DNA of 64,000 nucleotides from a virus. Under the pieces are notes generated by a model. The model saw nothing but the letters and a program-made list of their open reading frames with translations. It was not told where the DNA came from and did no database searches. The translations under genes and the position numbers were made by a program. Location of the stretch: IMG/VR virus record IMGVR_UViG_3300021141_000001. One strand, given 5' to 3'. Positions 5,949 through 58,010 of the stretch are shown piece after piece. The stretch's first letter is position 1, and each line of letters begins with the position of its first letter.

Positions 5949-6380
5949 ATGCCTTTACCGTTTTTTACTAATCCAAATAATAGTCCACTATCATCAGCTC
6001 TTAATAGTAATATTCCTATTGCTATGAATTATCAACTTGAAGAAAAGATTGAGTTGGATTTGAATAATCCTATATTTGTGGCTTATGTTAATACAAGTAA
6101 TCTAACAAGACAAGCCGCAGAAGAACATCTTTATAGAACTAAAAAAATATTTGATGTTTATAAAAATATCACTATTTGGGTAATTGCTTCGAATGAAACT
6201 AAAATAGAGTGTGTTTATGATGGTCAATGTAGAACTCGTGATATAGAAATAAGTGACTTAATAAAGGAGATAAATACAAGGATAGATATAATGGCTAACT
6301 CACATTCTTTTGATGATTTCAAAATTAACATCAGAGATTGGAGATTAAGCGAAATAATAAATGGCACTGAGGAAAAATAA
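5949..6380 (+). CDS. Small protein: portal (T4 gp20-like) fragment plus C-terminal tag
   Basis: AYVNTSNLTRQAAEEHL resembles gp20 WYVDTGNMPARKAAEHM; ends IRDWRLSEIING. Confidence 0.6.
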   Translation: MPLPFFTNPNNSPLSSALNSNIPIAMNYQLEEKIELDLNNPIFVAYVNTSNLTRQAAEEHLYRTKKIFDVYKNITIWVIASNETKIECVYDGQCRTRDIEISDLIKEINTRIDIMANSHSFDDFKINIRDWRLSEIINGTEEK

Positions 6381-6738
6381 AATAGAAATACTTGATAGAA
6401 TAATTACTAAGGCTGAACTTGGTGATGATTACTATTGGAGTTATTGGTATGATGATGAGTGGGATGATTATCACGATGGTTACTGTGATTGTTATATGTG
6501 TATGCCTGTTGATTATGATTATCTACCAGAAGAATTTCAACCTAAAGCAGTAACACATATAAGCAAAAGAGGTATAAGAATAACACAACATACTCATTCT
6601 CCTGGTAAATTAATAGATATGACTTCTATTTACTCTAAAGAAGTTCTTAGACAAAAAAGAATCAACCATATTTTAGGGATAGAGTCAATAGAACATTCTC
6701 GTCCAACTTTAGGAGATATTTTGAATATTAAAAAATAA
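6361..6738 (+). CDS. Hypothetical protein, Asp/Trp/Tyr/Cys-rich N-terminus, tag near C-terminus
   Basis: DDYYWSYWYDDEWDDYHDGYCDCYMC; LRQKRINHILG. Confidence 0.6.
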   Translation: MALRKNKIEILDRIITKAELGDDYYWSYWYDDEWDDYHDGYCDCYMCMPVDYDYLPEEFQPKAVTHISKRGIRITQHTHSPGKLIDMTSIYSKEVLRQKRINHILGIESIEHSRPTLGDILNIKK

Positions 6739-37090: not shown

Positions 37091-37423
37091 ATGAAAACAC
37101 CAAATTTATTTCCCGTAGCTATGAAAATTGCTGCTCAAACTATTGGACAAGATTTAGTCAGTGTTCAACCAATGGCTGGACCAGGTGGAATGACTAAAGA
37201 AGAAAGAGAAAGAATTGAAGCCGAGATTAAACAAAAGAATCGTGATGGTAAAATCGATTCATTAATTGAAGGATCAGAATATAAAGAAGAAAAATTAGAA
37301 GAACATCCTGATTATAAACCAGGTAGTGGTTGTCAATTATTTTATATGGATTATACTTACAATTCTCCAACTCACAAAAAAACAAGAAGAAGTAAAAAGA
37401 AAAAGAAAGATGGGAGTATTTAA
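37091..37423 (+). CDS. Small protein: major capsid protein (gp23 Gol-region) fragment interrupted by the tag
   Basis: LFPVAMKIAAQTIGQDLVSVQPMAGPGG ... NRDGKIDSLIEG ... QLFYMDYTY. Confidence 0.7.
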   Translation: MKTPNLFPVAMKIAAQTIGQDLVSVQPMAGPGGMTKEERERIEAEIKQKNRDGKIDSLIEGSEYKEEKLEEHPDYKPGSGCQLFYMDYTYNSPTHKKTRRSKKKKKDGSI

Positions 37424-37625: not shown

Positions 37626-37961
37626 ATGATAAATGTTTATTTGATATGTGCCGAATTTGAAGGAAGAAGATTGTATAAGATTGGTTATACAAGAAGAGAT
37701 GTCTCTAAAAGAATTAAAGAGTTGAAGACTGGTAACGGTTCTGAAATGTATGTTATAGATTCTTTTAAGTCAAAATGGGGAACTAAAATTGAATCACAGT
37801 TACACAGAACATTTAAAAGTAAAAAGATAAATGGTGAGTGGTTTGATTTAACTGATGAAGAAGTAAAATCATTTATGGAAAAATGTAAATCTTCACATGA
37901 TGTGATGGAACTAATTACCACCAACAATACTTACTACTTAGAAACTGGTAAACTATATTAA
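37626..37961 (+). CDS. GIY-YIG family nuclease (T5orf172/MUG113-like)
   Basis: VYLI..YKIGYT..RIKELKTGN, IESQLH, NGEWFDL. Confidence 0.85.
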   Translation: MINVYLICAEFEGRRLYKIGYTRRDVSKRIKELKTGNGSEMYVIDSFKSKWGTKIESQLHRTFKSKKINGEWFDLTDEEVKSFMEKCKSSHDVMELITTNNTYYLETGKLY

Positions 37962-38673: not shown

Positions 38674-40422
38674 ATGCTTATTAGTGAATTAGGAATTAGA
38701 GGATTCAAAAGTTATGGTAATAACGAACAAGTCTTAAAATTAAATACGGAAAAAGGAGAATTGATTCTTCTTGTTGGAAATAACGGAGCAGGTAAATCAT
38801 CTTTGTTAGATTCCTTCGATTACACACTTTATGGTAAAGTTAGAGGTCGTAAAAAGAAATGGGCCACTTTATCCACACTCCCAAACAGAATTAACGGTGA
38901 ACTACTTAATAGAATTAAATTTAATTCTTTAGGTACTGACGTTGAAATAAAACGAGGTATATCACCTGGTGTGTTAGAACTTACAGAAAACGGTGTTGTC
39001 AATGAAAGAGCCGGTAAAGGTAATGTTGATGAAAAGATTGAAAAGTATATCGGTATGGATATTGAAACTTTCAAATCATTTATCTCAATGTCTATTAATG
39101 ATTTCAAAAACTTTATCTCTTTATCAAATGAAGAAAAACAACTTCTTTTAGATAAGTTGTTCAACTTAGAAGTTATCAATATCTTAAATGGTATCTTAAA
39201 AGATATCGCTAAGAATAATAAAGTCAGAGCCGCTTCTTTTGATGGTGAAATTAGAACTTTAGATGACTCAATTTCATCTATTCAAAAGTCTATTGATAAA
39301 GCTATTGAAAGGCAAAAAGAAGAAGCTAGACTAGCTTTAGAAAGAGAGAAAGAAGATATTCAAGCCGAGATTGATAGAATCACAGGTGAGATGAATTCTA
39401 GAAAAGATGATTATAAATCTTTGAAAGAAAAGATGGATAAAATCAAAGAAAAGGATTCAGAATTATCTGATGAGATGGACAAAGAAAAAAGACAACTTAT
39501 CAATTGTCAAAATGATATTAAGAATGTTCAAAGAGAATTAGACTTATATGATTCTGGTAAATGTCCTACTTGTAAAACAGATTTTGATTCGGTTCACTTT
39601 GCTAATTTAAGAACGGCTTTAGAAGAAAAGAAATTAGGTTTTGAAAATATCAAATCTGAAATTGAAGCTAATGTTACTAAGATAAGAGAAAGACAAGTTA
39701 AGTTAAAAGGTTTATCTGAAACAACTACAACAACTTTTAATGATTTAAGTTATCTATTGAAAAACTATAAATCAGAGATTGATAAATTAGTTCAAAAGAA
39801 AGCTTCTCAAACTGTTCCGGTTAATACTACTCCTTCTATTAATATTCAAGAGTTTCAAAATACAATTGAAGAACTTGAAGAAAAGAAAGTAGTTAGTTCT
39901 GATAACATCACAGTTTGTAAAGAGAAAGACCTTTATTATAAAGAGTTGAATCGTATCTTTGGTGAAGATGGTGTTAAGAAGTCTATAATCTCTGGCATTA
40001 TTAAACCAATCAATCACTTTATTGCTGAGAATATTAAAAAGATGAGTTTGCCATTTGAAGTAAGATTAGATGAAACTTTTACAGCTGAGATTAAACAATT
40101 AGGTTCTCAAATTGAACACGATTCTTTATCAACTGGTGAAACTAAAAAAGTTAATATTAGTATCTTAATTGCTTACTTGAAGTTAATTAGAACTAAGCGT
40201 CATATCAATATACTCTTCTTGGATGAGGTCTTCTCTTCTATTGATATCGAAGGTATAGATTCTATTTTGGCTCTCTTAAAATCGTTCGCAAACGATTATA
40301 ACATCAATATCTTTGTTGTCCATCATGCTATTTTGAACCAAGAGATGTTTGATAGAATACTGAAGATTAATAAAGAAGTGTTTTCTTCGATAGAAGAGGT
40401 TGATCTGAGTTATGGAAGTTGA
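38674..40422 (+). CDS. SbcC/Rad50/T4 gp46-like recombination ATPase
   Basis: GFKSYGN, GNNGAGKS, CPTC zinc hook in a coiled coil, LSTGE signature, LFLDEVF, VVHH. Confidence 0.95.
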   Translation: MLISELGIRGFKSYGNNEQVLKLNTEKGELILLVGNNGAGKSSLLDSFDYTLYGKVRGRKKKWATLSTLPNRINGELLNRIKFNSLGTDVEIKRGISPGVLELTENGVVNERAGKGNVDEKIEKYIGMDIETFKSFISMSINDFKNFISLSNEEKQLLLDKLFNLEVINILNGILKDIAKNNKVRAASFDGEIRTLDDSISSIQKSIDKAIERQKEEARLALEREKEDIQAEIDRITGEMNSRKDDYKSLKEKMDKIKEKDSELSDEMDKEKRQLINCQNDIKNVQRELDLYDSGKCPTCKTDFDSVHFANLRTALEEKKLGFENIKSEIEANVTKIRERQVKLKGLSETTTTTFNDLSYLLKNYKSEIDKLVQKKASQTVPVNTTPSINIQEFQNTIEELEEKKVVSSDNITVCKEKDLYYKELNRIFGEDGVKKSIISGIIKPINHFIAENIKKMSLPFEVRLDETFTAEIKQLGSQIEHDSLSTGETKKVNISILIAYLKLIRTKRHINILFLDEVFSSIDIEGIDSILALLKSFANDYNINIFVVHHAILNQEMFDRILKINKEVFSSIEEVDLSYGS

Positions 40423-40702
40423 TAATTTGTTAGAATTATATCTTAACGCTAAGAAAGATAAGAAAGAAGCTATTAGTCTTCAAAAATATGAGAAAGCGGC
40501 TATGGCTAGAGATACAGAACGCAAACATTCAGTTGATTTGTATGAGTTATTGAGTGGTGATAAAGTTGAAGCTTTTGATTATAATAAATTTGATAAACTT
40601 ATTGATGATTACTGTATGAGTAAGTATGAAGTAAGTATTTATGATACACACTCATTAAAACAAATTATTAGACAGAAAAGACTAAAAGATTTAGGAATAT
40701 AA
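40412..40702 (+). CDS. Small protein: UVR (UvrB/C, ClpC M-domain) coil plus C-terminal tag
   Basis: KKEAISLQKYEKAAMARDTER; ends IIRQKRLKDLGI. Confidence 0.7.
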   Translation: MEVDNLLELYLNAKKDKKEAISLQKYEKAAMARDTERKHSVDLYELLSGDKVEAFDYNKFDKLIDDYCMSKYEVSIYDTHSLKQIIRQKRLKDLGI

Positions 40703-40736
40703 AAAAAGCCTCTGATTTCTCAGAGGCTTTTTTTTA
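40701..40736. terminator. Bidirectional terminator
   Basis: AAAAAAAGCCTCTGA-tttc-TCAGAGGCTTTTTTTT. Confidence 0.85.
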
Positions 40737-40745
40737 AATATATTT

Positions 40746-42284
40746 TTAACAATCGTAACAATCTACTTGTCCTCGACCATAACAATTACCACATTCTACT
40801 GTTTCATCTCCATCACATTCACGACATGTTCTTTTACCATCTCCATCACAATCTGAACAATTCACTTTACCAGATCCATCACAATCTGAACATTCTTCCT
40901 CTTCGCCATCAGAGCCTTCAACATTACCAGATCCATCACAATTTGAACAATCTTCTTTACCATCACCATCACAACTATTACACTCAATAGTTCCTTCACC
41001 ATCACAATTACCACAAGAAACTGTACCTTCACCGTCACAGTCATAACATTCAGTTCTACCAGAACCATTACAAGTATCACAAGGTCTAACATAGTCACCA
41101 CCTGTATCTTCTAAGAAGTAACAACCACCAGTATCCTCATTTGAAATAGTTTTTGTTCTTGAGTTAAAATATTTAAGTGTATCTAAATAAGGAAAATTAT
41201 CCATACTAGCATCAGTTAAATTAACAGTTAAATCTAAATTAACTCTACTTCCATCTGGAGCTATAGCTTGACCACTATCTGAACTATTATTATGTTCTTT
41301 ATAGTACCAACCATTTTCTTTAGCATAATCTCTGAATAGTTCAACATCAGAAGGATTTACTGTATAGATTCTATCTAAATATTCTTTACCATCTTTTAAT
41401 TTCCAAAGTAATGCTCTACCGATAATTTTTTCAGTATCATCCATTGATTTGTAAATAACTAAACCAACTTCTGGATTAGCAGTATAAACTTCTAACCAAC
41501 TATCTGGAGCACCAGCCATACAAGACGAACCTAAAGTACCATTTCTTTCAAAGTAGTTTTCATTATGATACCAATGAGCAATATCGGAACCTCTAGCAAC
41601 TTCAATATAAGAGAATTTATCATTCATCTTATCAATAGTAGCTTTATATAAATTCACAAATTGTTCAAAATCTTTATCAGTAAATTCAGCACCAGCCGCT
41701 TTTAAAAGCGCTCTCATTGCTCTACCTACTTTAATCTCTTGTCTACTTGATGACCAAACTTTTTTAAGTTTTTCATCAACAGATCTTAATTTCTCAACAT
41801 TATAAACGCCTTGACCAGCATCATTTCCAGATAAATCTTTAAATTTAACCCAAGCATAAGATTTACCACTTGTTTCAGATGTTACTTTAGCAACAACTTC
41901 ACCTAAATCTCTTGAATTAGGTTTATAAGGTTCAGAACCTTCTTCAAATGTATAACCTAGTTTTTCAAATAAGCCATTATTAGACTCTTTGTGTTTTAAC
42001 CAACCTCCACCAGAACCTGTAAATCTAACCACTTCTTTAGTATCACCTAAAATCTCTTGTGCTTTTCTATCAGGAGTAAAAGAAATTGTATCATTTTTAG
42101 AAAATTCTATATCAAGATAATTAGCTTGAACAGTTAAGTCATTATTTTCAACACCTAAAATGGCTTTAGCCATTGGATGGTCAATTTTAGCCATTGCCTT
42201 TCTGAAGTTATCAGAGAAAACGACATTTGATTCTAGTATAAACTCTAGATTTTCTTTTATAAAGTCTGAATATTTTTTAATCAT
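40746..42284 (-). CDS. SCM/RALLW/DRIY-motif protein with capsid-targeting-like N-terminus and tandem CxxCxGxG zinc fingers
   Basis: MIKKYSDFIKE; GTLGSSCM, GRALLW, LDRIY, FPYLDT; about 9 DnaJ-type zinc-finger repeats. Confidence 0.75.
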   Translation of the reverse strand: MIKKYSDFIKENLEFILESNVVFSDNFRKAMAKIDHPMAKAILGVENNDLTVQANYLDIEFSKNDTISFTPDRKAQEILGDTKEVVRFTGSGGGWLKHKESNNGLFEKLGYTFEEGSEPYKPNSRDLGEVVAKVTSETSGKSYAWVKFKDLSGNDAGQGVYNVEKLRSVDEKLKKVWSSSRQEIKVGRAMRALLKAAGAEFTDKDFEQFVNLYKATIDKMNDKFSYIEVARGSDIAHWYHNENYFERNGTLGSSCMAGAPDSWLEVYTANPEVGLVIYKSMDDTEKIIGRALLWKLKDGKEYLDRIYTVNPSDVELFRDYAKENGWYYKEHNNSSDSGQAIAPDGSRVNLDLTVNLTDASMDNFPYLDTLKYFNSRTKTISNEDTGGCYFLEDTGGDYVRPCDTCNGSGRTECYDCDGEGTVSCGNCDGEGTIECNSCDGDGKEDCSNCDGSGNVEGSDGEEEECSDCDGSGKVNCSDCDGDGKRTCRECDGDETVECGNCYGRGQVDCYDC

Positions 42285-42357
42285 TTTCAACTATGTTATG
42301 TTTTATAGATATAAGTATATATTAAATATATAATGTACAAAAATTAATTTATTACAT

Positions 42358-42549
42358 ATGTTGATCGTAGAGGTTGAAGGAAAACTAACAATTGAAAAAG
42401 CTCTTAAAATTCTTAAAAGAAAATGGGACAAAACTAAAGCTATGAAAGAGCTTAGAGGAAGAAAAGAATTTACTAAAAAGTCTGTAAAAAGAAGAGCTGA
42501 AGTAACAAGAGCCGCTTATATTCAGAAGAAATACAGAAGTAATGATTAA
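42358..42549 (+). CDS. rpsU: Ribosomal protein bS21
   Basis: IEKALKILKRK..KTKAMKELRGRKEFTKKSVKRR..RAAY. Confidence 0.9.
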   Translation: MLIVEVEGKLTIEKALKILKRKWDKTKAMKELRGRKEFTKKSVKRRAEVTRAAYIQKKYRSND

Positions 42550-42841: not shown

Positions 42842-43043
42842 AAGATTTATCAGTAAAAATAGTTTATTATCAGCCGCTTCTAATGGCTTAGATTACTTAA
42901 TAGGTTATGTAACAAAACCAGATGCTCTTATTATAGAGTCGGATGGTATATCTCACCAAGTTTGTGATATTGTTGGCTTAACAAAAGATAAACAAGAGAT
43001 GAAACAAAAATTAAAAGAAATAGGATTCTATGAATTTGAATAA
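42828..43043 (+). CDS. Hypothetical protein
   Basis: 71 aa, overlap-coupled. Confidence 0.55.
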   Translation: MSFNKRFISKNSLLSAASNGLDYLIGYVTKPDALIIESDGISHQVCDIVGLTKDKQEMKQKLKEIGFYEFE

Positions 43044-43737
43044 AAACTATTACTCAATTCTTGGAGTTGATAATAACTCTGATGAAAAGGTAATAAAAAA
43101 AACTTATTATAAATTATCATTTACGCATCACCCTGATAAAGGCGGTAATCCTATTATCTTTGGTGAAATGACTGAGGCATATGATGTTCTTTGTAGTGAA
43201 CAAAGAAAAGATTATGATGTTAAAAGTAAATTTGGTAATAATTATAATGAGTATTTTGAGCTATTTGATATTAATTTAGAATTTGATTATAATAAAGAAA
43301 AATCAAATTATGAAAAATTCAAAAAGAATGAAGTTTTAGATATCTATATGAATATAGATGAAACATTTAATGGTACGTTAGAATATGAAAGATGGGTTAA
43401 GTGTAAAACTTGTGATGGTACAGGTAAAGACCTTTCAGCTAAAATTGTTATTAAAGACAATGATGGTAATATTTTAAGAACATTTGATGCTGATGATGGA
43501 TGCGATTTCTGTGAAGGATCTGGTAAAGACTACAAAGGAGATGCTTGTAACTTTTGTAATGGTAAAGGTAAAGTAGGTTTAACACCTTGTAAAAAGTGTA
43601 ATGGTGAAAAACGAATTTTAGGAAAACAAAAACTATCAGGTATTAAATTAACCGGTGATGAAACTAAAATTGAATCAATGGGTAATTGCTCTAAAGATGT
43701 TGCTGGAATGGTTGGTTATCTTTTATTAAAAAAATAA
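43030..43737 (+). CDS. dnaJ: DnaJ-like co-chaperone (J domain plus zinc fingers, shortened)
   Basis: YYSILGV, HPDKGG, four CxxCxGxG. Confidence 0.85.
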   Translation: MNLNKNYYSILGVDNNSDEKVIKKTYYKLSFTHHPDKGGNPIIFGEMTEAYDVLCSEQRKDYDVKSKFGNNYNEYFELFDINLEFDYNKEKSNYEKFKKNEVLDIYMNIDETFNGTLEYERWVKCKTCDGTGKDLSAKIVIKDNDGNILRTFDADDGCDFCEGSGKDYKGDACNFCNGKGKVGLTPCKKCNGEKRILGKQKLSGIKLTGDETKIESMGNCSKDVAGMVGYLLLKK

Positions 43738-51487: not shown

Positions 51488-52222
51488 ATGAATAAGAAAA
51501 AAGTATTGATTTTTACTGGAGCAGGAGTTTCAGCTGAAAGTGGCGTTGCTACTTTTAGAACTGGTGATGATGGGCTTTGGTATAATCATAAAGTAGAAGA
51601 TGTTGCCACACCTAGTGGGTGGCGTAGAGATAGAGAAAAAGTTCTTAATTTCTACAATATGCGTCGTGCTCAAATGAAAGATGTTGAGCCAAATTTGGCG
51701 CATAAAATAATTGCTGAATTAGAAAATGATTATGATGTTACTGTTGTAACTCAAAATGTTGATGATTTACACGAAAGAGCAGGCTCAACTAATATTATTC
51801 ATCTACATGGTGAGTTAACAAAAGCTAGAGGCTGTATGTATGATCATAAAACATCACCATTAGACACAGTTGTTGATGTGGGATATAATCCAATTAATAT
51901 TGGAGATAAATGTCCAACAACTGGCTCTCAATTAAGACCTCATATTGTTTGGTTTGGTGAAGATTTAGATCCTGATTTTGTTGATATGGCTACTAAAGCG
52001 GCTAAAGAATGTGATGTATGTATTGTTGTTGGAACTTCAATGAAAGTTTCACCTGCTAATACAATTCCATTTTTGACTAGAGAAACTACTAAGATTTACT
52101 ATGTAGATTTATCAGACCTTGATTTCTATGTACCAGAATACAGAAATGACTTATTTACTCATTACCAAGAATTGGCATCAACTGGTATGGAAAAAGTTAA
52201 AAACGATTTAAAAAATATTTAA
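51488..52222 (+). CDS. cobB: NAD-dependent deacylase, Sir2/CobB family
   Basis: TGAGVSAESG..TFR, TQNVDDLHERAG, HLHG, RPHIVWFGE, VGTS..V.PA. Confidence 0.95.
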   Translation: MNKKKVLIFTGAGVSAESGVATFRTGDDGLWYNHKVEDVATPSGWRRDREKVLNFYNMRRAQMKDVEPNLAHKIIAELENDYDVTVVTQNVDDLHERAGSTNIIHLHGELTKARGCMYDHKTSPLDTVVDVGYNPINIGDKCPTTGSQLRPHIVWFGEDLDPDFVDMATKAAKECDVCIVVGTSMKVSPANTIPFLTRETTKIYYVDLSDLDFYVPEYRNDLFTHYQELASTGMEKVKNDLKNI

Positions 52223-55845: not shown

Positions 55846-56568
55846 TTAATAATTCATAATTATCAACTCTGTACCCATTATAGTTATCTTAGAATCAAAT
55901 TTACAAGTAGGATAAAGTTCTTCTATACCGTCGAAATAGTAGTAACTTAATAAGAACTTTCCTTTAATATTATTAAGAGTTTCCGCCAGCTCTTTATGAG
56001 TATCTTTATTAAAATCGTGATTGATATAGTACTCTTCTTTACCCATATAAGGCGGATCTACATAAAAGAATGTTGATTCTGAATCATACATTTCAATTAC
56101 TTTTTTATAATCGTAGTTGTGTATATTATTTATTTTACTTAAATGATGTTCATAAGCACGGTGCTTCATTTTAAGTATATTGAATTCACTATTATCTCTC
56201 CAAGAATCTTTACCAATTTCATAAGGAGATGAGCAAGTTAAAACAACTAACCAATAAAGAGAAAGTAACATCTCATCTTTTTCAGTTATTATTTTTTTCA
56301 AACAACTTCGATAGTAATCTTCATCTATCTCTGTGTTCTTAAATAATTCAACAAAATTAGAATTTCGTAAATTTTTGAATAATAAATAATTTAGATTATT
56401 CTTATCATTATAGATAAAATTAACATCCTTAAACTTAGTGAAGTCTAAGGCAAAAAAAATACCAAACATTCCGGCAAATGGTTCTACATAAGTAGAAATA
56501 TTATTGGGAATATTTGGTACTATAAAGTTCGCAAATTTAGATTTCTCGCCTAAATAAGGTATCAGCAT
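55846..56568 (-). CDS. DNA adenine methyltransferase (Dam/D12 class)
   Basis: PYLGEKS, YVEPFAG, YND, FYVDPPY, LSY. Confidence 0.85.
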   Translation of the reverse strand: MLIPYLGEKSKFANFIVPNIPNNISTYVEPFAGMFGIFFALDFTKFKDVNFIYNDKNNLNYLLFKNLRNSNFVELFKNTEIDEDYYRSCLKKIITEKDEMLLSLYWLVVLTCSSPYEIGKDSWRDNSEFNILKMKHRAYEHHLSKINNIHNYDYKKVIEMYDSESTFFYVDPPYMGKEEYYINHDFNKDTHKELAETLNNIKGKFLLSYYYFDGIEELYPTCKFDSKITIMGTELIIMNY

Positions 56569-56894: not shown

Positions 56895-58010
56895 TTATCT
56901 GGACTTTTTAAATTCTTTTTTATCATTAGAAATATAGAATTTATCAAAATTATAGTATTTCTTATACACTTCTTTGATTTTCTTCATATTAACTTTATCT
57001 AAAATATCATAAACTGACCAACCCTCTGGATTGATATATTGATTAACATTCTTATATCTAAGAATCTCATCTTTAGCCATTCTTACTTTGTAGTAATCTT
57101 TAACTAAGTCAAATCTTTCTTTTGTTAAATATTTATCAGGGTTTGTAATCACCTCTTTAACAGCGTCAACTACACCATTGTAATTTTTATTAGATGTTTG
57201 AGTTGAGATAGTATTAATACCTTGATTGTTAACTCTTGACTGATAACAATGTACATAATAAACTAATCCTTTTTTCTCTCTAATTTCTTGATAAAGTGGA
57301 GATTTTAATCCTAATGACAACATAGCATTGATAAAGTGAACATAAGCAAAATCTTCCTCAATTATTGGAGAAAGAATAGCAATAGATGTTTTGTCTTTGA
57401 ACTCATTACTTAATTCTAAATCAACATCATTTTCACCAAACTCAATAGTTTTTGTAATATCTCTCTTAGCAAAATCAATAGTATTGTTTTTGTAAGGTTT
57501 GTTTTTAGATACGTTAATAATCTTAGTAGGCTTAGCATATTGAAGTTCAAAGAAATTCAAACAATCCATATACTTTAGTTTTTCTAAATCTTCTTTTAAT
57601 CCAATTGGATCATAATCACCAAATAATTTACGAGAAAGATTTAACATATGTGTTTGAGTTTGGTCATTGAAACAATCCATGTATTCTTCAAGTACAATGT
57701 TTCTTTCATTTTCAAATTGTTCTTTAGTAACATTGAATTCACCAAGTAAGTCCATAAACTCACCTTTCCACTTATTTACTTTTTCATCTAAGCCAGTTAG
57801 ATAAAAAACAATTTCATTTGAACTTGTGTAAGCATTCCAATCAATGCCGTCTTTGTCAAAATCTTCTTGAAGATGATCAAAGTTTTTACACATTAAATGT
57901 TCCATTAAGTGAGAGATACCAAACCAACCTTTTTTCTCAAGATTAGTTGAACCTTCATATACAACGTAGAAACCAGATAATTCAGTTTCAGATTTAAGAT
58001 TTATTATCAT
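56895..58010 (-). CDS. M16-family zinc peptidase (insulinase/pitrilysin)
   Basis: GISHLMEH (HxxEH), NAYTS, ERNIVLEE, LYQEIREKKGLVY. Confidence 0.92.
   Translation of the reverse strand: MIINLKSETELSGFYVVYEGSTNLEKKGWFGISHLMEHLMCKNFDHLQEDFDKDGIDWNAYTSSNEIVFYLTGLDEKVNKWKGEFMDLLGEFNVTKEQFENERNIVLEEYMDCFNDQTQTHMLNLSRKLFGDYDPIGLKEDLEKLKYMDCLNFFELQYAKPTKIINVSKNKPYKNNTIDFAKRDITKTIEFGENDVDLELSNEFKDKTSIAILSPIIEEDFAYVHFINAMLSLGLKSPLYQEIREKKGLVYYVHCYQSRVNNQGINTISTQTSNKNYNGVVDAVKEVITNPDKYLTKERFDLVKDYYKVRMAKDEILRYKNVNQYINPEGWSVYDILDKVNMKKIKEVYKKYYNFDKFYISNDKKEFKKSR

Follow-up and report, generated by a model that had tools for sequence, protein, structure and literature searches.

A tagged mini-protein with a ClpC-type hairpin in a huge-phage lineage, and its possible tie to phage ClpC

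In a 64,000-nucleotide (nt) stretch of viral DNA from the IMG/VR record IMGVR_UViG_3300021141_000001 (the window, by which we mean the whole stretch analysed), a small open reading frame (ORF) at positions 40412-40702 follows a gene for an SbcC-like ATPase. The locus raises the question of what a phage does with a free-standing protein that looks like the regulatory coiled coil of the AAA+ unfoldase ClpC and ends in a peptide tag found on many small proteins of the same lineage. The original prediction, made from the sequence alone, took the ORF for a ClpC middle-domain (M-domain) coil of the UVR type followed by a tag, and proposed that it might link tagged baits to a host protease. The combination of a ClpC coil and a tag was confirmed, each part going beyond chance. 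Targeted degradation by way of putative tagged baits would be a candidate function, in which a link to ClpC is plausible and the mini-protein is a candidate switch or adaptor. The explanation we tentatively favour, with a probability of roughly 0.4, is that the protein is an M-domain mimic that would cap the M-domains of phage, and possibly host, ClpC, with the tag tying the mimic into the tag network. Within the huge-phage lineage to which the window belongs, the nearest records are the uncultured phages LR745206.1 and LR756502.1 (634-642 kilobases, kb). Further near relatives are IMG/VR contigs of 385-508 kb, estimated by CheckV to be 95-98% complete.

The mini-protein and its hairpin

ORF 40412-40702 is a genuine conserved gene. 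At 90% identity a word-indexed search returned 62 clusters, almost all with a length of 96 amino acids (aa), and an exhaustive profile search returned 94 representatives at 50% identity, almost all of 90-110 aa and aligned from the first to the last residue. Bar one unrelated repeat protein, these representatives measured about 70-130 aa each, and none was an insertion in an Hsp100 ATPase. Fifty-nine diverse members, 25-58% identical to the window copy, were aligned (alignment A3) and are the basis of the profile searches and residue counts given below. Other searches returned little: the protein atlas gave weak leads alone (score 0.76), tblastn against the phage collection matched only LR745206.1, a PHROGs search with the mini-protein had no match, and a search of IMG/VR with three diverged family members as queries found no related loci. 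No Clp adaptor family of the MecA, ClpS or McsB type was among the matches from the Pfam, PHROG and fold searches.

AlphaFold2 (AF2), given a 51-sequence alignment, confidently predicted a helical bundle (predicted local distance difference test, pLDDT, 93.4; predicted template modelling score, pTM, 0.82) with helices at residues 2-22, 26-48, 57-72 and 79-93. Searches with the whole model recovered generic helical bundles only (Foldseek against the PDB, E of at least 1; VIA-align, Z of at most 6; BFVD, E of at least 0.4). Such results would be expected if the protein were a small helical bundle built on a common UVR folding motif, with no functional tie to ClpC and with a tail that is a structural helix fitting the tag pattern by chance. 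The compact four-helix model, in which the tail helix reaches pLDDT 87-91, and the score of the window copy below the Pfam cut-off agree with this explanation. We consider it unlikely, since the family profile prefers ClpC over other UVR proteins, the tag stands at the extreme C-terminus even in variants without the third helix, and the enrichment of the tag in the window is far above chance.

The family belongs, by its Pfam matches, to the UVR family (PF02151), and the window copy by itself falls under the cut-off. Against this 36-position model the window copy scored 15.3 bits (E 0.017), the gathering threshold being 21.5 bits. Of the homologues, 23 of 24 matched at E of at most 0.1 (best 9.6e-6), and a precomputed match was present in nine of the 62 clusters. 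Within the UVR family the resemblance pointed to ClpC. Peptide 17-37 shares 11 of 20 positions with residues 427-446 of Bacillus subtilis ClpC, and the B. subtilis peptide given in the original prediction agrees with the sequence in the PDB alignment. When the A3 profile was run against all PDB sequences, the top 14 rows were all ClpC or ClpC1-like M-domains (29 bits for the best, E 1e-5). Below them came McsA with 14 bits, ClpE with 10.3 and UvrB with 10.2 (E 7.3). The claim that the coil follows that of the ClpC middle domain was thereby borne out.

Scores were slightly higher with the ClpCs encoded by related phages, which are described further below (median 34 bits, maximum 37.9), than with those of Flavobacteriia and Sphingobacteriia (about 30-32 bits) or Bacillota (26-29 bits). 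The matched span ran from residue 4 to 61 with phage ClpC and from 10 to 55 with B. subtilis ClpC. With the ClpC M-domain of the closest near-complete relative, hhalign gave A3 a probability of 97.3% (E 1.8e-11), and BLASTP aligned the mini-protein itself with 14 identities in 30 positions (47%). Seven related genomes were considered in all, namely LR745206.1, LR756502.1 and five near-complete IMG/VR relatives, and the A3 profile was run in those five. At E of at most 0.01 its only matches in each were the ClpC M-domain and the mini-protein or one of its variants. Two other kinds of UVR protein in the five genomes, of about 200 and about 140 aa, went unmatched despite higher Pfam UVR scores.

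The residues that matter in ClpC are retained. F436, R443 and D444 make the head-to-head contacts between M-domains and control ClpC activity; their mutation renders ClpC active and toxic, and F436 is also required in MecA binding (PMC5699869). Their counterparts in A3 are an aromatic residue at Y26 in all 59 members, R33 in all 59 and D34 in 53 (glutamate in five more). Head-to-head pairing and the control of adaptor binding are the properties of UVR coils on which the original prediction had drawn. K17 and E36 are likewise present in 59 of 59. On profile evidence, then, the coil is specifically of the ClpC type and not of the UvrB/UvrC type. Because it stands alone in 96 aa, the mini-protein appears to be a mimic or paralogue of the ClpC M-domain and not a ClpC.

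A scan of the window with a regular expression found no second UVR motif. As for the two other UVR proteins of the relatives, neither carries the tag. The larger (about 200 aa) is a bifunctional-nuclease (DUF151-like) protein with the UVR motif at its end; the smaller (129-136 aa), with UVR also at its end, lies directly upstream of an S1-domain-like protein of about 365 aa. Loci of these extra UVR proteins are L003:997-1605, L005:1477-1866 (minus strand) and L007:1210-1620.

The tag and the variable parts of the gene

The tail of the mini-protein is a copy of the lineage tag, beyond chance. The pattern R..[KR][IL]..[IL][LFIG], located at most 12 residues from the C-terminus, was found in seven of the 81 putative genes of the window, this ORF included. 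In 200 shuffles of the proteins the mean number of matches was 0.045, and never more than one was seen; reversed sequences gave none. In the window copy the tag, RQKRLKDLG, ends one residue before the C-terminus. Its ninth position is G and not L or F; the canonical form occurs in most of the UVR-plus-tag variants of relatives. Across the 59 members the tail formed the second block of conservation: R87 in 59, K or R at position 90 in 45, L, I or F at 91 in 59, L, I or M at 94 in 59, G95 in 52, and I or L at 96 in 56.

The family ending L-G-I (L94-G95-I96, window positions 40691-40699) resembles the tripeptide [LIV]-G-[FL] with which Clp ATPases dock on ClpP, which may be coincidence. LGI directly after the tag also occurs in the window ORF 6361-6738.

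The gene is a site of local divergence. Between the window and a 476-kb relative, nt identity is about 90% over sbcC and most of the convergent gene on the other side, and 56-72% over the mini-gene; at the protein level SbcC is 94.5% identical and the mini-protein 37.9%, with motif and tag retained. The third helix is dispensable, being missing from a 71-aa version that follows sbcC in LR756502.1 and replaced by other sequence in further variants. In relatives whose SbcC is 58-81% identical, the slot after sbcC is filled by other genes, often for small tagged proteins, and UVR-plus-tag mini-proteins are encoded at other loci, with lengths of 83-121 aa and unrelated spacers. UVR hairpin and tag thus recur with different spacers and at different loci, which indicates that selection acts on these two modules. 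Strong conservation was confined to the tag and the residues of the hairpin tip.

Many ORFs following sbcC in the IMG/VR relatives L103-L114 end in a tail of the R..K[IL]..[IL][LF] type, and the slot has the look of a hot spot for the insertion of tagged mini-genes.

The position of the gene suggests another role. Its ATG lies within the end of sbcC, with an 11-nt overlap, and an overlap is also seen at the related loci L001, L002 and L097-L101. UVR motifs mediate the contact between UvrB and UvrC, and the relatives encode the nuclease-UVR protein mentioned above. The mini-protein could then be an accessory of DNA repair or recombination whose hairpin pairs with a UVR nuclease, either UvrC-like or the phage nuclease-UVR protein, and couples it to the SbcC/gp46-like ATPase encoded upstream. 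An obligatory functional linkage to sbcC was considered and rejected, as more distant relatives have other genes after sbcC and carry their UVR-plus-tag proteins elsewhere, and the DNA-repair explanation is thereby weakened. The family profile, moreover, gave UvrB 10 bits against 29 for ClpC, and in five genomes it failed to match the nuclease-UVR protein. We regard a role in repair as highly improbable.

Candidate partners of the hairpin

A search of related genomes for UVR motifs identified a 701-aa ClpC in LR745206.1. Ahead of its first AAA module it has about 40 residues, including an acidic run, and no Clp_N; it retains both Walker A motifs, the UVR M-domain and the VGF loop for docking on ClpP. 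The 710-aa ClpC of the closest near-complete relative is built in the same way. A ClpC without the N-terminal domain (N-domain) was present in seven of seven related genomes, each of which also has the mini-protein, and ClpP-family genes were present in six of the seven. Among metagenome matches to phage ClpC, the best 120 of more than 8000 were all of the 697-715-aa type, and many of their contigs measure hundreds of kb. With ClpCs of Bacteroidota, phage ClpC shares 60-73% identity, which by sequence points to the host phylum. The closest "bacterial" matches (70-73%) come from short contigs binned in Bacteroidota metagenome-assembled genomes (L017, 10 kb; L018, 4 kb), where the reading frames could fit an N-domain.

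The protease link of the original prediction can be taken up in part. Its ClpC component is plausible, and its choice of the host enzyme is not supported to the same degree: the phage's own ClpC is the likelier partner because the relatives encode one and because the family profile scores slightly higher on phage ClpCs. The M-domain tips are apparently too alike for host ClpC to be dismissed on this ground. If host ClpC were the partner, the mini-protein would recruit or deregulate host ClpCP, for instance by breaking its resting state, and host or captured proteins would be degraded. The tips of Bacteroidota M-domains are almost identical to that of phage ClpC, loss of M-domain control yields a hyperactive, toxic ClpC (PMC5699869), and SPO1 Gp53 provides a precedent for a phage adaptor-like protein acting on host ClpC (PMC6873191). 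The lineage's own ClpC, usually accompanied by its own ClpP, is nevertheless the simpler partner. In full-length ClpC, furthermore, the resting state is stabilised by the N-domain as well (PMC12583610), and capping the tip alone may not suffice. Host ClpC as the main target seems improbable to us. The other hub that had been suggested, an M16 peptidase, does exist in the window (56895-58010, minus strand, with an HLMEH motif), and nothing was found linking it to the mini-protein ORF.

The explanation that we favour, capping of phage ClpC, combines these elements as follows. One protein would consist of a free-standing ClpC M-domain hairpin, a variable spacer and the lineage's C-terminal tag. 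The hairpin would pair head-to-head with the M-domain of the N-domain-less phage ClpC by docking on its tip, and perhaps also with that of host ClpC, whose tip is nearly identical. Capping of the tip would convert the repressed ClpC assembly to active hexamers. Activation is the expected direction because ClpC lacking its N-domain (ΔN-ClpC) shows no proteolytic activity until the contacts between M-domains are abrogated, whereupon it is highly active and degrades a degron-tagged substrate on a par with MecA-activated wild-type ClpC (PMC12583610). Binding of MecA depends on the ClpC N-domain (PMC5699869); phage ClpC could therefore not use a MecA-type adaptor and would need something else to open the contacts between its M-domains. 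A simple candidate would be a separate hairpin that shares the tip; it would either activate or redirect phage ClpC. The part of the tag is more speculative: it may link the activator to a tag reader and so bring ClpC-ClpP to tagged proteins, or it may turn the activator into a short-lived client in its own right. Both the binding and the function of the tag are inferred here, as is the choice of activation over inhibition.

Several observations weigh against this explanation. The aromatic, AA and RD residues occur in UVR hairpins generally and may serve folding instead of pairing, and the score lead of phage ClpC over host-type ClpC is a mere 2-8 bits. In the AF2 model the tag helix is packed with high confidence against the rest of the bundle, so the tag may not be free in the mini-protein. 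One near-complete relative (G006) has no ClpP. The co-occurrence of mini-protein and ClpC in seven of seven genomes comes from related phages and is hence not independent evidence, and we infer the presence of ClpC in the window's own phage from relatives that are about 90% identical to it in nt sequence in the region.

The mini-protein may instead be one more fragment joined to a tag, its piece of ClpC M-domain serving as a bait or decoy for a third-party M-domain binder; the mini-protein would then not connect the tag system to a protease. It would parallel the putative capsid, sheath, terminase and helicase pieces on other mini-proteins. The unrelated tagged mini-proteins that occupy the slot after sbcC in relatives would fit such a role, as would the fact that the hairpin copies a domain encoded by the phage lineage itself. 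We find it doubtful, as the M-domain is a homotypic pairing element whose copy would bind ClpC anyway, and no third-party M-domain binder was identified in these phages.

Quite unlikely, in our estimate, is that the tag serves as an address for proteolysis run by phage ΔN-ClpC and ClpP. Tag helices would in that case be read at or near the M-domain, where a tag helix might pack much as the tag does on the mini-protein's own hairpin, and the mini-protein would be a switch that either opens the repressed ClpC or competes with tagged clients. Were this true, a large share of the small proteins of the phage would be scheduled for regulated unfolding or degradation.

Should capping of ClpC by the mini-protein prove correct, an AAA+ unfoldase would be under the control of its own regulatory coiled coil, copied as a separate protein; in the literature we found no description of such control for Clp/Hsp100 machines. 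It would explain how a viral ClpC without the adaptor-binding N-domain is switched on, and would give a first concrete partner to the unexplained tag that many small proteins of these phages carry. Hairpin, tag, ΔN-ClpC and ClpP are small, modular components.

Neighbouring genes and known systems

Coordinates of the gene, its parts and its immediate neighbours are given in Table 1. The hairpin that separates the mini-gene from the convergent gene folds at -20 kcal/mol (z -6.4), none of 200 shuffles folding equally well, and its stem is preceded by an A-run and followed by a T-run. A consensus terminator scan did not pick it up; RNA folding confirmed it. The convergent gene for the 514-aa protein is kept downstream at the related loci L002 and L009.

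Table 1. Features at and around the mini-protein gene, with positions in the window.
Feature	Positions	Strand	Description and basis
SbcC/Rad50-like (T4 gp46-type) ATPase gene	38674-40422	+	Pfam SMC_N and SbcC_Walker_B; phrog_77, E 2.3e-74
ClpC-type mini-protein gene	40412-40702	+	96 aa; UVR hairpin, third helix, C-terminal tag helix
Helical hairpin (residues 2-48), putative equivalent of the ClpC middle domain	40415-40555	+	Profile and BLASTP
Core UVR motif (K17-R37)	40460-40522	+	Y26, R33 and D34 are counterparts of ClpC F436, R443 and D444 by alignment offset
Helix 3 (residues 57-72), family-specific	40580-40627	+	AF2 model; I64, Y67 and Y72 conserved
Lineage tag RQKRLKDLG (R87-G95)	40670-40696	+	Regular expression and family conservation; then I96, with the stop codon directly after
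Bidirectional intrinsic terminator hairpin	40701-40734		Between convergent genes; RNA folding
Convergent 514-aa protein with C-terminal CxxCxGxG-type zinc-finger repeats	40746-42290	-	Weak BSD2_CRD and DnaJ_CXXCXGXG matches; context only

The CxxCxGxG repeat region of the 514-aa protein is a second local hot spot of divergence (41-43% nt identity against about 90% in its flanks). With a 235-aa protein encoded at 43030-43737 (plus strand), which has a J-domain and a DnaJ zinc finger, it forms a chaperone-flavoured pair of neighbours. Between them, at 42358-42549 (plus strand), lies a gene for a 63-aa homologue of ribosomal protein S21 (Pfam E 9.3e-10); in the relatives L106, L115 and L117 an S21 gene follows sbcC. 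Upstream of sbcC, the N-terminus of a 110-aa ORF (37091-37423, plus strand) weakly resembles the beginning of the major capsid protein Gp23 (Pfam E 3e-4, under the cut-off), and a T5orf172/MUG113 GIY-YIG-like protein is encoded at 37626-37961 (plus strand). Elsewhere in the window are genes for a SIR2-family protein (51488-52222, plus strand) and a D12 adenine methyltransferase (55846-56568, minus strand).

Our literature search found no description of M-domain mimics or of the ClpC of these huge phages, and the mini-protein is best placed by comparison with systems that share part of its design. The UVR domains of UvrC and of the UvrB C-terminus (PF02151) belong to the same Pfam motif family. 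They differ in that UvrB obtains just 10 bits (E 7.3) with the family profile, and in that the mini-protein has no excision-repair context.

In its proposed job, the mini-protein would resemble MecA and SPO1 Gp53 (PMC6873191), small binders of ClpC regulatory domains that switch on or redirect ClpCP. The Pfam, PHROG and fold searches gave no relationship in sequence or fold to either. MecA, moreover, needs the ClpC N-domain, and Gp53 acts on a host ClpC that bears one, whereas phage ClpC has none. Mycobacterial ClpC2 (PMC10030653) is described as a free-standing copy of a ClpC regulatory domain that acts by binding what the full-length protein, ClpC1, binds. There the copy is of the N-domain, bacterial and untagged; the mini-protein copies the M-domain.

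The closest likeness is to the ClpC M-domain of Bacillota and Bacteroidota (PDB 3PXG, 3J3S, 6EM8), the best and almost the sole PDB match of the family: a two-helix hairpin of equal length with the pattern K..x..Q.[YFW]E.AA..RD.E, that retains residues equivalent to F436, R443 and D444. Unlike this domain, which is inserted in the first AAA module, the mini-protein stands alone. It has an additional helix, ends in the tag at its C-terminus, and has a sequence that diverges much faster than that of ClpC itself. The M-domain of the lineage's own N-domain-less ClpC is the hairpin's closest relative (34-38 bits). That protein is a double-ring ATPase of about 700 aa with a VGF loop, and the mini-protein would be its regulatory hairpin without the ATPase part.

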